Origin: Eledone cirrhosa
Taxonomy: Eukaryota
Length of the DNA: 64,000 bases
Reading direction: 5' to 3'
Assembly (NCBI GenBank): GCA_964016885.1
Contig: OZ024740.1
Location: forward strand, 229,958,001-230,022,000
Below are positions 804 to 54,128 of the stretch, piece after piece. Each line of letters opens with the position of its first letter. Position 1 is the first letter of the stretch. The position numbers and the translations under genes were made by a program. The notes below the pieces were generated by a model. The model was given only the letters and a program-made list of their open reading frames with translations, was not told where the DNA came from and did not search any database.

Positions 804-868
804 TATTTTATCTGATGAAAGCACACCATAATTTAACTTGGTGTCCTTGAAATATGTATAATGAAATA
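804..868 (+). ncRNA. Type I hammerhead ribozyme in PLE pLTR (5' copy)
   Basis: tattttat-CTGATGA-aagcacacca..tggtgtcctt-GAAA-tatgta-TA-atgaaata; stems I and II pair. Confidence 0.8.
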
Positions 869-1046
869 AATATGGTTTTATAAATATAGTTTCCATTTGT
901 TAATATCGTATTTTTACTCCAATTATTTGTTGAGTGCTTTATATCAGTTATAAAAATATTTGCTTGTTGTATCCCAACAATTTAAATAGAACTTTTACAT
1001 ATATTCTGCTCCTGTATTGTCGAGCACTTTATATTATAACTGAAAA

Positions 1047-3256
1047 ATGGAATTATTTAAGATCTCTTCTTCTCTAAAGGACATACCTTTACCTAGGAAT
1101 AAAGATTTTATTAAACAATTAATAGAAAAATCAGACTCTTTTATGAGAAGAATCAGGTGGCGTGCTTTCCACTTCGATAAATCTAATCTAAATGAAAATG
1201 TTTTCCAATCTGGATAAAATCTTCAAATCTAAAAAAAAATCCACCCCCCAACAAACTACTAATGGAATTTGAAAATGAAATCATATCTATCATCCAAAGC
1301 ATCAAATTCAAAAACAACTTCAAAGGCCAGGATTACTTAAGAAATATTAAAAATAATATTGAAAACTTAGAGAAAACGGAGAAAATTCTAGTCAAATCTG
1401 ACAAAACCAGTAATCTTTACGGAATACAAAAGGACATTTATAACGATCTTATATTAAAGGAATTAAGGAAGAAATACAAAGTAGCAAATAATGACGACCT
1501 TGAAAAATTGAATACAGATGCCTCTTATATAATGCATGAACTAGGCATTGAAAATAAGACACAACCCTTTATGCCAAGGAAACCTAAGATTAATATGAAG
1601 GATCACAAAAGGAACTTTGTAACTGATATACCAGTCAGATTAATTGCACCATCTAAATCGGACCTTGGCAGACTTAGCAAAAATATTTTAGACAGAATAA
1701 TACCACAAATTAAGAATTTATCTTATTTAAAATTATGGAAAGGAACTAGTGAAGTTATCGATTGGTTTAAGGAAATTAAATATAACTATAATAATAAGTT
1801 TATTCAGTTGGATATTGCTAACTATTACTATCTATCACTCCTAATCTACTGAATAAAGCACTAACTTACGCATTTAAACATACAGACTTAACTAGCAATG
1901 AAATGCACATTATATTATCGGCACGCAAAACATTATTAGAATTTAATAACCAACTCTGGACTAGGGCAGATAGAAATAATAACTTCGATATAACTATGGG
2001 ATCATCCGATTCCGCTCAGGTAACGGATCTTGTGGGCCTCTTTATAAATAACTCTCTACATAGGAAAATACCTGAGATAACCGGAGGTTTATATCGTGAC
2101 GACATGCTTTTACTTATAGAAAATAATAACTGTGAACTAAATAGAAAAAGAAAACAAATTATACAATTTTTTAATTACCTTAATCTAAAAGTAGAAATAG
2201 AGAATAACCATAAAATAGTTAACTTTCTAGATGTAACACTAAACCTTAACACATGTCTTCATTATCCATTTCACAAACTAAATGAGAACTTAAACTACGT
2301 CAATTTTAACTTTAATCACCCCAGATCCGTTAAAAATACTATAGTGAACTCTGTACAGGAACGAATTTCGAGAATTTCAGCTAATAAGAATATATTTGAT
2401 GAAAAAGCACATTATTACAACGAAGCGTTAGGTAGAGCTGGGTATAGAAATAAAATTAAATACATTGATAATAATAATATAACAACTAACCATAATCGTA
2501 ACAATTTTAACTATTTTAACAATGTTAACAACTATAATAGAAAACCTTACAATAATTCCGAAAACAAAAAAAAGAAATAGAACTAGGAACATATTATGGT
2601 TCGCTCCTCCTTTCTCATTAAATATTAAAACCCCTATTGCTAAACTATTTTTTAAAGCTCTTGACAAATGCTTCCCTAGAACACATATATTATTCAATCT
2701 TTAATAGACATACTATAAAATTAACTTATTCTTCCACCAAAAACTTAGCGCAAAATATTAATAGAATTAATAATAGAAATTTAAAACCTAACCAAAATAC
2801 CACTAATAACCCAAGCAATATCCAATTTGATAAATGTAACTGTAGAAATAAATCTAACTGTCCGTTAAATAACAATTGCTTAGCTAAAAATATAGTATAT
2901 AATTGTAATGTAAAAACTAATTTAAATTCATTTAATTATGTGGGATCCACTTCCACAGATTTAAATCCCGCTTCAATAATCATAAAAATTCTTTTACAGA
3001 TCCAAACAAAAAATCTTCAACTTCTCTATCTAGCTTATTATGGGACGTCAAACTAAAGAACATTGAATATTCGTTGATTTGGAATATTATTTCAAAAGCT
3101 ACTCCTTTTAACTCCCCTTCAGAAAATTGTGATCTTTGTATAGAGGAAATATTCTTTATATTAAAGAGCAAAAATTCCCTGAACCTAAGGAACAATTTAT
3201 TCAGTTGCTGTAGACATAGATTGAACTCAACGTTTAAATATAAATTTAAAATGTAA
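1047..3256 (+). pseudogene. Frameshifted PLE RT/GIY-YIG endonuclease ORF (Naiad-like)
   Basis: MELFKISSSLKDIPLP...RRIRWRAFHF start; KSDKT, KDHK..F, RLIAPSKSDLG, FDITMGSSDSAQV, LYRDD, FLDVTLNL; CNCRNKSNCPLNNNC; IVY..YVG; CDLC..E..LN.R...CCRH. Several frameshifts and stops. Confidence 0.92.
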
Positions 3257-4763
3257 TATATAATTAATTAATTAATTCTATTAATATATTGAACCTGTCG
3301 ATAAATCATTAGATTCCTTCATTTTTTTTACTGCTTATACACTCAAGTAAAAAAAACTTTTCTTCCTAAATATAAATAAATATAATAAACTCTTCTAGAG
3401 AAATATACTGAAAGTTCTTAAAAGGGGAAAATATTTTTTGATAGTTTCTCCTATTTTCGAAAGTTTATCTTTATACGTAGAAAATGTTTATACTAAATTT
3501 ATTAAACATATTATTATTTTGAAATTATAACTTGAAATATTCTATAATATTTTTAAAGTTATATTGTTTTAAAGTTATATTGCTTATAATTATATTTCCA
3601 AATCGTAATATAATTCTTTTGTATTTTATGTACTTCAATTATACTATGTACTGTATTTATATATACTTCTCTCTATATATATATGTGTGTGTGTGTATTG
3701 ATATACATGTACATATGGTTTATGCGTTGTACATATGTTTTATGCGTGTATGTCTATCTGTATGTATATATATATATATATATATATATATATATATGTG
3801 ATGCATATCTACCTATTTGTGTGGGCACATATATGTATCTATATGTGGGAATTGTGTATGTATATATATGTGTATATGCATACAATTCGATTGCATTTAT
3901 TTATAGGGATTATCCCAAGGTTCGTGACAAATAAACATATAATAACAGTCATAAATACATAACGGGTAATCATAAAACTTATATAAAAAAATTTGTTTAA
4001 TAACATAAAGTGTGTATAACATAAAATTTCCTTTAATATCTTAACAATTGTAACATTGATATAACTAAATAACGTGATTTTCCTTCACGCTGCTTTGATA
4101 TTACATTGAAATGATTTTCTCTGATTTTATAAGATTCCTATATCTTAAATTAAAAAATCCTTTATATTTTGTATGTATATATTATATACGTAGTTAGATA
4201 TGTATATATATTTTTATACGTGTGTATATATATTTATATGTATGTATTTTTGCGTGTGTATATGTGTTATATAATATGTAGATTTTTAATAATATAGTCT
4301 TAATAATAATATATAGATTTCTTAATATATAGATCCCAATTTTTAATGTATTGATCTCAATATTTAACTGATTAAATAAACATTTAATCATATTTAAACA
4401 AGGGTTAAATTTTTCATATTATATATGTATATTCCATTCATGATTATTAACATTTCTAATTTTATTTATTCATTTCATCTCAAATGTTAAGATAACTCAA
4501 CAAGATATGACTTAGAGTTTTCGCTCTCTCTCCTTTCTCTTTCTTTCTCCTCTCCCTCTCTCTTTTTTTTCTCTCTGTTGTTCTGCTCTCTCTCTCTCTC
4601 TTTCTCTTTCTCCGTAACCCAACGGCTTATTTAAAAATATCCAATACTAACTTACCTAATAATATAATTAAAGATATAACTCCACTATCCGGGAGCTTCC
4701 AACAGTAATGGTTGCATTCTTTAAGGGTATGTCAATATTTATTTATAAAACTGCTCTATATTA

Positions 4764-4828
4764 TATTTTATCTGATGAAAGCACACCATAATTTAACTTG
4801 GTGTCCTTGAAATATGTATAATGAAATA
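4764..4828 (+). ncRNA. Type I hammerhead ribozyme in PLE pLTR (3' copy)
   Basis: Identical to 804-868, offset 3960 bp. Confidence 0.8.
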
Positions 4829-51870: not shown

Positions 51871-52796
51871 ACTATGTATATATATATATATATATATATG
51901 TATATATATATATATATATATATATATATATATATATATATATATATACAGAATTAGCCGTCGAAACGGCTTGAGCTCAGCCGTCGGGGTCTTACTTGTC
52001 CTATATATATATATATATATATACAGTATATATGAATATATATATTTATATATATATATATATATATAGAGAGAGAGAGAGAGAGAGAGAGATACATATA
52101 TATATATATATATATATATATATATATAGATATAGATATACATACATGTATACATATATATACATATATATATATATACACTTAAGGTAAATGTTGATGC
52201 AATTCAATTCAAGCACTCAACATACTTTTTCCACCTAGGAGTGACGTAGTATATATCGAATAAGAAAAAGCGTAGTGTCAGATGTTCAAGTCCTTTAATG
52301 ATAATTATATATATATATTTATACATATATATGTACATATATATATACAGTATATATATATATATTTATACATATATATATATGCACACACACACATATA
52401 AATATCACCTTGATCACCTTGACCGACCAGTCTGTTGGGCGCCAATATATATATATATGTATGTATGTATGTATGTATGTATGTATGTATATATGTATGT
52501 ATGTATGTATATATGTGTGTGTATGTATGTATGTATGTATGTGTGTATGTATATATATATATATATATATATATATATATATATATATATATATATATAT
52601 ATATACATATATATATACATATGTATGTATATATACATATATATATACATATATATATGTACATATAAATATATATGTATGTATATATATATATATATAT
52701 ATATATATATATATATATATATATATATATATATATATGTATATATATATATATATATATATATATATATATATATATATATATATATATATATGG

Positions 52797-53259
52797 CGAT
52801 GAATTAGTTTTGCGAGGTTTTTTATATGAAATCGTGTGTCGAAACAGATATTGTTATATTTGGGGAGGGTCATATTTGCGTAATATTGCCAGAATTAATA
52901 ACAGAACACACTCACTGTTTGGTTGGTTTTCGCTTCTCGCTGTCTTTTATATATATATATCTGCGATCTAACTTACTCGGTCCTCAATGTTGCCATTGAC
53001 TGACCGGCGGTCAAAAATAATACAGATACAATATAGACAAACACATATATATATAGTTTACAGTGTTTGTCTATATTGTATCTGTATTATTTTTGACCGC
53101 CGGTCAGTCAATGGCAACATTGAGGACCGAGTAAGTTAGATCGCAGATATATATATATAAAAGACAGCGAGAAGCGAAAACCAACCAAACAGTGAGTGTG
53201 TTCTGTTATTAATTCTGGCAATATTACGCAAATATGACCCTCCCCAAATATAACAATAT
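52797..53259. mobile_element. Fold-back of the TGACCCTCCC family, ~197-bp arms
   Basis: Arms 52848-53044 and 53063-53259. Confidence 0.88.
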
Positions 53260-53585
53260 ATATATATGTATATATATATATATTTATATATATATATTTA
53301 TATATATATATATATATATATATATATATATATATATATATATATATATATATATATATATATACATATATATATATACATATATATATATACATATAGG
53401 TCAATACTCATCTTTTTCCATTTCTCCGAGGGTTGTTAACCTCACTATCAGGCTAAATAATCTCTTTAATTTGTTTAGACACAATACGGCGTTAGCTTAC
53501 ATTTCTAATAATTTCAAACCCACTTGCTGTTTCGAAAATATTCTTACTTGATATATATATATATATATATATATATATATATATA

Positions 53586-54128
53586 TTAGAAAGTGAGGTT
53601 TTTTTTTACAAAATGAAAAATAACCGAGGTGTCCTACACGAGTGGAAGTATAAAGAAAAAGAGATGAAATCGAAAATGCAACTGAAGTCTTATTTTTTTT
53701 TTAAATATATATATTTATTTGGTTCCTTTACCGGGTTCCCAGTTCTTCTGCTTTTCAAAAGGTGAGTTGAGATGGAGGTCTGTGGTTTTTCTCACATATA
53801 TATATACGTACATACATATATGTATACAGACGTACAGTAGTATGTATATATATATATATACATACATGTACACACATATATATGTACGTATCGGTTTACC
53901 GAACATTTATTATAATGATCGGTTTGTTTGTAAACATTATAATAAATGTAAATATTATAATAAATGTTCGGTAAACCGATACGTACATATATATATATGT
54001 GTACATGCATGTATATATATACATACTACTGTATGTCTGTATACATATATGCATGTACGTATACATACTTATATTTAAGTAACAGCCGTACTAAGAGTGA
54101 GAAATGAAATTTCGTTTCATTTTTTCCA
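53586..54128. mobile_element. Chimera: fragment of the 9.5-kb family joined to a family A fold-back
   Basis: 53586-53795 matches 9430-9638; ~53800-53940 and 53955-54128 are inverted family A pieces. Confidence 0.8.

Follow-up and report, generated by a model that had tools for sequence, protein, structure and literature searches.

Penelope-like elements (PLEs) of the Hydra clade have hammerhead ribozymes (HHRs) and (TA)n targets as part of their definition, and the description of this clade lists Hydra-1_Obim, which has both (Craig et al. 2021, PMC8557442; here and below, published work is compared as far as the accessible parts of each source go). Minimal HHRs of metazoan PLEs number 2,000-9,000 in schistosome, coelacanth, and Xenopus (Cervera and de la Pena 2014, PMC4209133). 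Non-LTR retrozymes, where LTR stands for long terminal repeat, are non-coding tandem units with a presumed PLE origin (Cervera and de la Pena 2020, PMC7229834; Li et al. 2026, bioRxiv 10.64898/2026.07.22.740005). In vitro, the PLE protein of the anole cleaves an AT-rich target on both strands, extends each of them, and uses two internal start sites, with HHR cleavage being dispensable (Frangieh et al. 2024, PMC11167929). Here, we describe a 64-kb stretch of the genome of Eledone cirrhosa (contig OZ024740.1, positions 229,958,001 to 230,022,000; hereafter the window), which has 36% GC, lies within a 3.0-Gb assembly, and was flagged by a sequence-only reading as a very dense set of HHR retroelements. 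Our analysis indicates, with a probability of about 0.85, that 12 of the 18 repeat families in the window, which hold 22 of its 32 HHRs, are the 3' pseudo-LTR (pLTR) ends of coding PLEs, and that a few others are protein-free tandems likely copied in trans by the same enzymes.

Self-BLAST of the window sorted its elements into 18 families (F1 to F18), which bears out the more than a dozen dissimilar elements noticed from the sequence alone; most of them are palindromes with extra sequence on one arm. HHRs were searched for with a descriptor that combines a CUGANGA or UUGANAA core with stems I-III and tolerates U.U at the base of stem II. The descriptor was widened stepwise with features of PLE hammerheads (a loop 3 that is short or absent, one additional base following A9, and U3-A8; PMC4209133), as earlier versions overlooked motifs without loop 3 or with the extra base, U3-A8, or U.U. 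A plain core search of the window gave 15 matches and the final descriptor gave 20, 14 of them with a perfect core, as compared to means of 1.83 and 0 in 30 block-wise dinucleotide shuffles. The matches at 9608 and 9804, which are weak one-mismatch matches within the F5 palindrome, were excluded as spurious. The motif at 31526, which passed an earlier descriptor with a 2-bp stem I, was included and a match of that descriptor at 62213 was excluded. The 19 type I hammerheads left after curation and 13 degenerate family copies judged by eye give a total of 32 complete or near-complete motifs, close to the roughly 30 first reported. Where several half-motifs had been noted, the window holds more than 12, consisting of ten 3' halves from F6, one half each from F14, F4, and F12, and 5' halves of F10 at 24078, 40803, and 39790. 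The claimed proximity to (TA)n is also seen, with (TA)5 at most ~330 nt downstream of 28 motifs, although some of these tracts are internal to F4. At random loci, (TA)5 was found within 150 nt of 46/80 hammerheads, against a background of 15%. An Rfam E-value scan of the window returned no hammerhead family among the 150 of 458 matches listed, and microsatellite miRNA matches dominated.

One-mismatch descriptor matches also arise in shuffled sequence (mean 1.8-3.5 per window), which raises the question of whether the motifs are chance matches in AT-rich DNA. Perfect cores give a different picture. In a random sample of 990 kb, made up of 99 10-kb pieces placed at round coordinates on the various chromosomes, 80 perfect-core motifs were found versus ~3.5 after shuffling. 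These comprise 66 CUGANGA cores (C3-G8; 1.0 shuffled) and 14 UUGANAA cores (U3-A8; 2.5 shuffled), whereas the two mismatched 3-8 combinations occurred once each. Given this covariation and the perfect-core excess in both the window and the sample, a chance origin can be set aside with near certainty. In 150 distinct F4-like alignments, the core varied by 1.4% versus 8.1% elsewhere. A stem I pair swapped between U-G (60), G-U (59), A-U (8), and C-G (2), with three copies unpaired, counts that represent few events as the copies are related and were enriched by the searches. Stem covariation across copies, the absence of which would have spoken against the first reading, is therefore present, and by structure and covariation the motifs are real type I hammerheads. 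The 3-8 pairing, the F4 stem I swaps, and the low F4 core variation suggest that the ribozyme structure is under selection, and the hammerheads of the window and the genome are predicted to be self-cutting. On the other side, folding of single motifs mostly recovered stems I and II, yet z fell below -2 for only one of eight motifs.

As in metazoan PLEs (PMC4209133), where single motifs are attributed to truncated elements, the HHRs here occur mostly singly, with opposite-strand dual motifs 100-700 bp apart, U3-A8, and a short palindromic helix III; F6, F8, and F14 differ in having a long helix III. We also asked whether the U.U pair at the stem II base defines a new variant; it does not, since HHR_Amex2 of axolotl has been published with it and the table of Hydra HHRs shows it as well. 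A GAAAC-like stretch in the F2 tail was also rejected as a hammerhead because it is antisense; the HHR of F2 is located further upstream, in a part that the window copies lack.

The assignment of most families to PLEs is based on coding sequence. By tblastn, the window contains five PLE coding remnants (1023-3253, 6992-7261, 20709-23045, 24235-24489, and 46562-46810), so that the PLEs reported alongside the ribozymes are present but are more than the three first counted. F1, F3, F8, and F16 (Hydra-type) and F9 are linked to coding sequence within the window, while F2, F5, F6, F11, F13, F14, and F18 were tied to coding copies by genome searches. Short copies often match the coding PLE ends at 93-100%. 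The pLTR and tail of F6 continue into a Hydra-type open reading frame (ORF) in loci L003, L004, and L245, the last a full copy (2/30 loci plus L056 and L245), as do those of F13 in L348 and the tail of F14 in L257 and L258 (2/30 loci). F11 is preceded in L240 by a Hydra-type endonuclease (EN) and a 1.1-kb untranslated region (UTR), at 99-100% identity, and F18 has PLE reverse transcriptase (RT)/EN sequence upstream in 10/20 loci. The variant F8 core CAGAAGA (U4A), found at 25424-25464 and 44116-44156, is conserved in the coding parent of this family as well as in further copies. For F5, PLE coding sequence precedes the element in 13/30 loci, plus L243 and L244, and F2 has a C-terminal GIY-YIG ORF and the HHR upstream in L054. 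In total, PLE debris makes up ~25 kb of the window by hand-drawn intervals.

Judged by motifs, eight of the 12 families are Hydra-type, three (F5, F9, and F2) are Neptune/Nematis-type, and one is untyped. RWR (RW[K/R] in the published clade), DKT (DKA in L053), and CxCX5C are present in PLE1, L003/L245, L062, L063, and L257. The Hydra-type EN is C-terminal to the RT, with a single Cys in its core and without CCHH, which agrees with the absence of the two-Cys core in the published clade (PMC8557442). Also shared are the 3' HHR (with U.U at the stem II base in the published table), the (TA)n target, the inverted truncated copy, and the one-sided tail. Three differences should be noted. The full elements measure 3.4 kb (L245) and 4.1 kb (PLE1), the excess being UTR, notably longer 3' UTRs, whereas Hydra-clade elements are generally <3 kb; the tails are 60-135 nt as compared to 30-40 bp; and at least eight families, with 43-59% amino acid identity among those compared, are present in the window, where the published clade lists one octopus family. 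The Hydra-1_Obim HHR motif was not found among the genome loci examined. Pfam gave no match for four of four single-Cys-EN proteins and no RT or GIY-YIG match on the five window fragments, and a homolog search returned 974 relatives, of which the 120 listed carried no informative name.

The remaining three typed families share with Neptune/Nematis-type PLEs the DKG motif (DKS in F2), the CX2-5CxxC linker (degenerate in F9), a two-Cys, CCHH-type GIY-YIG core in a C-terminal EN, and the microsatellite target. The F5 parent (L244, 3929-6253) has an uninterrupted 775-aa RT+GIY-YIG frame, with a GIY-YIG match and RVT_1 just below the cut-off. F5 differs from these elements in being very young. Because 40 genomic copies are 100% identical to a 191-bp window stretch, the family was probably active recently. 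A Naiad PLE was excluded, as the EN is C-terminal and HHRs are present, as opposed to the N-terminal EN without a canonical HHR of Naiad. Separately, an unrelated, frameshifted RT element (RVT_1 match; ~48500-51400, +) lies within the 3' UTR of the F16 PLE.

The sequence-only reading had proposed a PLE-driven community of non-coding ribozyme elements, and in its strongest form this would make the short elements mainly independent retroelements with their own master copies. F4, F15, F10, and the relatives F4c and F23 found elsewhere in the genome are indeed non-coding tandems, and coding copies are far outnumbered by short ones. Many F11 copies also share one fold-back centre, with one junction sequence (in either orientation) in 10/21 loci. 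However, these 21 loci contain 12 kinds of junction clustered on a palindrome present in the parent, and the query spanned the fold-back centre and was hence biased toward it. Furthermore, 5' extents vary in the unbiased sample, and 12 of 18 families match coding PLE ends. We therefore regard independence as improbable. What stands of the proposal is the PLE link and a retrozyme-like minority, F4 and F15; the possibility that all families are simple pLTR fragments holds for the 12 and not for F4, F15, and F10.

F4, F15, and F10 are the only non-coding tandems among the 18 families, and they have PLE-type ends. F4 is dispersed in the genome at 97-98% identity, and tblastn with the window's own PLE fragments found no PLE protein match in 28/28 loci. 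Contigs of four sequencing runs of unknown kind cover F4 and are uninformative on expression or circles. F15 arrays are ~100% identical on several chromosomes, one of them with four units facing five on the other strand. The F4 and F15 units (421 and 592 bp, GC 37% and 42%) each carry an HHR, have a longest ATG ORF of 70-75 aa, and give no PLE tblastn match. Their predicted circles fold at -121 and -169 kcal/mol versus -91+/-5 and -134+/-5 kcal/mol for shuffles. By sequence criteria, both families, which account for seven of the 32 motifs, fit the definition of non-LTR retrozymes. They share with the published ones (PMC7229834; bioRxiv 10.64898/2026.07.22.740005) non-coding tandem units of low GC, a type I HHR per unit, a self-paired predicted circle, the presumed PLE origin, and the U.U pair as in HHR_Amex2. 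Unlike in published retrozymes, (TA)n ends of PLE type and fold-backs are directly visible in F4 and F15, which are known here from sequence alone. The F15 unit is above the 150-450 bp range of PMC7229834 and within the 51-972 bp range of the bioRxiv paper. F10 has only the 5' half core and so lacks the complete HHR per unit of a retrozyme; being tandem and PLE-ended, it would work like a non-autonomous PLE. Alternatively, the three families could be satellites that arose when old pLTRs were amplified in place through unequal crossing-over, without RNA movement, a route discussed for vertebrate retrozymes, and no RNA run is listed for F4. The arrays are short, located on many chromosomes, 97-100% identical, mostly (TA)n-bounded, and often head-to-head fold-backs like coding PLEs, which makes the satellite route quite unlikely. 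Instead, mobilisation of F4, F15, and F10 in trans by PLE enzymes is highly probable. The remaining three of the 32 motifs belong to F7, F12, and F17.

The structure of the insertions suggests how they were made. In every family, the 3' end falls at one of two fixed sites, which are separated by the PLE tail (60-155 nt) and mostly followed by TA, and the PLE-end families occur as 5'-truncated, head-to-head fold-back insertions between (TA)n tracts. In 1.25 Mb of random, neighbouring, and window sequence, scored for 10 families with F4, F8, and F10 left out, 48 of 51 inverted (divergent) pairs had one tailed and one untailed arm, and none was untailed on both. F6 copies mostly end 125-142 nt from the 3' end, inside hammerhead stem II, and this accounts for its half-motifs. 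The 5'-end pile-ups of F1, F2b, F13, and F14 were not used, as they are confounded by truncated references, and low-complexity matches of F5 were ignored. In the in vitro work on the Anolis Poseidon protein PAc (PMC11167929), two internal RT start sites likewise define the tail, both strands are cut and extended, and the target is AT-rich; that study saw no difference between the strands in start site, whereas the genomic pairs here use one site each in 48/51.

Based on these observations, our current model is that a PLE protein, likely a dimer, would nick both strands of a (TA)n tract, with one cDNA primed at the outer start site of the RNA and the second at the inner one. Both cDNAs would usually terminate prematurely and be joined through a short palindrome or microhomology, giving a fold-back and many half-hammerheads, and the TA on both sides of the insertion would allow later elements to land alongside. 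The hammerhead would be a passenger just upstream of the start sites, with predicted weak or dimer cleavage, and the template is likely uncleaved or circular RNA because copies span the cleavage site. For F4 and F15, double cleavage would give unit-length RNAs, possibly circles, that re-enter the genome as multimers. We favor twin priming with one start site per strand by a narrow balance of probability. The principal alternative is that one cDNA folds back and self-primes, with the endonuclease trimming the second end at the tail boundary, as proposed for rotifer PLEs. Palindromes at inverted junctions have been read this way in the A. vaga literature, the tail has been attributed to EN-mediated resolution, and the F11 arms, which are 97.3% identical within loci versus 94.7% between loci (means), also fit. 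Two observations argue the other way, namely the in vitro extension on both target strands from two start sites (PMC11167929) and locus L062, in which an F4c (F4-type) arm directly abuts the truncated ORF of an F8 PLE without an intervening (TA)n tract, such that the junction links arms of two different RNAs. Self-priming thus has a real but lesser chance of being correct.

Several results count against the reading of the families as PLE ends and PLE-copied tandems, and against twin priming. No coding parent was found for F4, F10, and F15 in searches that gave up to 2467 candidates each, of which the best 28-40 were considered, and the F15 and F10b searches used match spacings without flanks (F13 likewise, plus one locus read). 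F7 had no coding link in 20 loci, and F12 and F17 are likewise without a parent, no targeted search having been made. Several family-to-PLE links depend on one or two loci, the full elements exceed the published Hydra length, and the clade placement depends on motifs. In addition, three of the 51 pairs scored as tailed at both ends, 74 arms were without a recognised partner, the retrozyme/PLE chimera L062 is one locus, and the one-tail rule would follow just as well from self-priming of a single cDNA.

Other unusual arrangements were recorded. In the window (10307-10660) and in L040/L309, an F2-type arm and an F7 arm adjoin without an intervening TA tract, and this join is duplicated in inverted orientation ~16 kb upstream at 96% identity; it is a second possible chimera. 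L059 (51-5407) is a 5.4-kb fold-back palindrome (93% identity) with F4 units at its bounds and other nested elements placed symmetrically, which may be a PLE-mediated inverted duplication of host DNA. F14-derived opposite-strand pairs 9-12 kb apart (C8:30531584/30543762, C3:267649477/267661839, and C4:238157361/238166605) suggest very long fold-back insertions.

At the genome scale, extrapolation from the 80 motifs in 990 kb, a sample that is clustered and not strictly proportional to chromosome length, gives ~2.3e5 perfect-core motifs (bootstrap 1.5-3.2e5), far above the 2,000-9,000 of PMC4209133. Copies per family range from 0 to ~1e5 per genome (estimate from 590 kb). Per 64 kb, the genome mean is 5.2 perfect-core motifs, as compared to 9.0 in the neighbouring 200 kb and 14 in the window. 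The window is therefore dense (resampling P ~0.02), as first described, but only ~2.7x the average. Published hammerhead counts include 126,247 in axolotl, ~5,000 in mussel, >6,000 in coral, and 235 Rfam matches in giant squid. The earlier suggestion that these elements are largely uncatalogued is doubtful at the family level, as a curated O. vulgaris library holds 190 PLE families (6.83% of the genome) and Hydra-1_Obim is published; the library's supplement does not mention hammerheads. A literature search, largely without subscription papers, turned up no hammerhead count for any octopus genome and no figures on the pairing of tails. Already known were the minimal HHRs of PLEs, pairs on opposite strands, U3-A8, U.U, one-end tails, the Hydra/(TA)n association, and retrozymes as PLE derivatives; new with respect to the literature examined are the scale and the direct PLE signatures on young retrozymes. 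A more ambitious joint claim is that this is the densest known animal hammerhead reservoir (~2.3e5 in 3 Gb versus the axolotl count in a far larger genome) with the currently spreading retrozymes F15 and F4, and that retrozyme RNA is moved by Hydra-type PLE enzymes through twin priming, with both start sites obligatory and probably circular templates, the direct genomic proof being the fold-back multimers of these families together with one retrozyme/PLE chimera. Taken as a whole, we put this forward tentatively, as it is somewhat more apt to fail than to hold.

Table 1. Hammerhead-bearing and related elements of the window (window coordinates; a dot marks features listed without strand)
Feature	Position	Strand	Remarks
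F1 Hydra-type PLE, partial tandem	1..4868	+	Frameshifted ORF 1023-3253 (tblastn); RWR, DKT, CxCX5C
F1 pLTR HHRs	812-860, 4772-4820	+	Descriptor; F1 ends in (TA)n at 4869
F2 fold-back of PLE 3' end	4959..5187	.	Tail on one arm; cut off before HHR
F2 other copies	15958-16026, 52800-53255	.	Self-BLAST; relative at 10307-10470
F3 5'-truncated Hydra-type PLE	5290..7336	-	Coding remnant 6992-7261; HHR 5480-5543(-)
F3 short inverted arm	7231-7336	.	Partial HHR at 7278
F4 non-coding 421-bp tandem	7337..9228	+	TRF; 3.1 units; HHRs at 7584, 8003, 8424
F4 inverted copy	8784-9228	.	HHR 9085
F4 older subfamily	17109..17800	+	~1.6 units; HHR 17509; further pieces 40920-41128, 53796-54128
F5 fold-back	9430..10008	.	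Tail on left arm; U3-A8 HHRs 9570-9599(-), 9904-9933(+); degenerate copy 53587-53795
F6 fold-back with 3' half-HHRs	10110..10253	.	Also 15437-15628, 25587-25787, 37769-37928, 43906-44063, 51949-52001
F6 longer fold-back	41653..42137	.	Only complete F6 HHR of window, 41670-41753(-); U3-A8, long stems II and III
F7 short element	10470..10660	+	Minimal HHR 10578-10605
F8 degenerate copy	11140..11410	+	Self-BLAST
F8 truncated Hydra-type PLE	24212..25489	+	EN end 24235-24489; variant HHR 25424-25464; short copy 44091-44178
F9 Neptune/Nematis-type PLE	19740..23713	+	ORF 20709-23045; inverted arm 19740-20521; DKG, two-Cys GIY-YIG core
F9 HHR-like motifs	23492(+), 19962(-)	+/-	U3-A8, U.U; stem I poorly paired
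F10a non-coding tandem	23775..24147	+	533-bp period in L105; only 5' half of HHR core
F10b non-coding 614-bp tandem and inverted arm	39767..40865	.	5' half cores only
F11 fold-back	36860..37720	.	HHRs 37008-37052(-), 37298-37342(+); tail 36860-36953
F11b	within 36860..37720	-	HHR core at 37543(-)
F12 fold-back	39371..39730	.	Degenerate HHR at 39506
F13 fold-back	41167..41592	.	HHRs 41296-41350(-), 41495-41549(+); tail 41167-41252
F14 fold-back	43589..43774	.	HHR 43608-43646(-); tail 43705-43774
F15 fold-back of non-coding 592-bp tandem	45016..45700	.	U3-A8 HHRs 45430(+), 45172(-)
F16 truncated Hydra-type PLE	46380..51873	+	EN end 46562-46810; inverted arm 46380-46560
F16 pLTR and tail	51559-51873	+	HHR 51589-51681
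F17	45949..46345	-	HHR 46123-46154(-) with G5A change
F18 PLE 3' end	31110..31645	+	Minimal HHR 31526-31553

Features of other kinds lie between these elements. A 286-aa open frame amid repeats (34992-35852, +) contains a RING-variant domain (PF12906, E 2.7e-12) and is possibly an intronless MARCH-type E3 ligase gene or retrocopy. A non-LTR element with an apurinic endonuclease (APE) and RT (57392-61945, -; Exo_endo_phos, RVT_1) has a 69% identical 3' fragment at 18906-19613 (-), and a (TAA)n-bounded 171-aa frame at 17910-18570 (+), with no Pfam match, resembles a non-LTR 3' end that we take to be R4/Dong-like. A repeat resembling a short interspersed nuclear element (SINE) occurs 10x in the window (16499-16657, 26636-26821, 31956-32101, 32297-32480, and six more) and in an estimated ~3.9e5 copies per genome; it is presumably an octopus SINE. 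Together with the genome size, the TA-rich landscape, and the Hydra-type PLEs, this repeat points to an octopus as the source.

The literature examined leaves undecided in what way a PLE insertion is finished and whether non-LTR retrozymes are really moved by PLEs. Both questions are testable in this genome, because it offers very many young insertions, among them a PLE with an open 775-aa frame and identical copies and dispersed retrozyme multimers of near-identical sequence, as well as the one-tail rule and a chimera. The kind of element is known, and the value of the system lies in its scale and tractability. The results also suggest that a sizeable part of the genome's TA-rich DNA is PLE debris, and many of the copies, being long hairpins, could give rise to double-stranded RNA on transcription.

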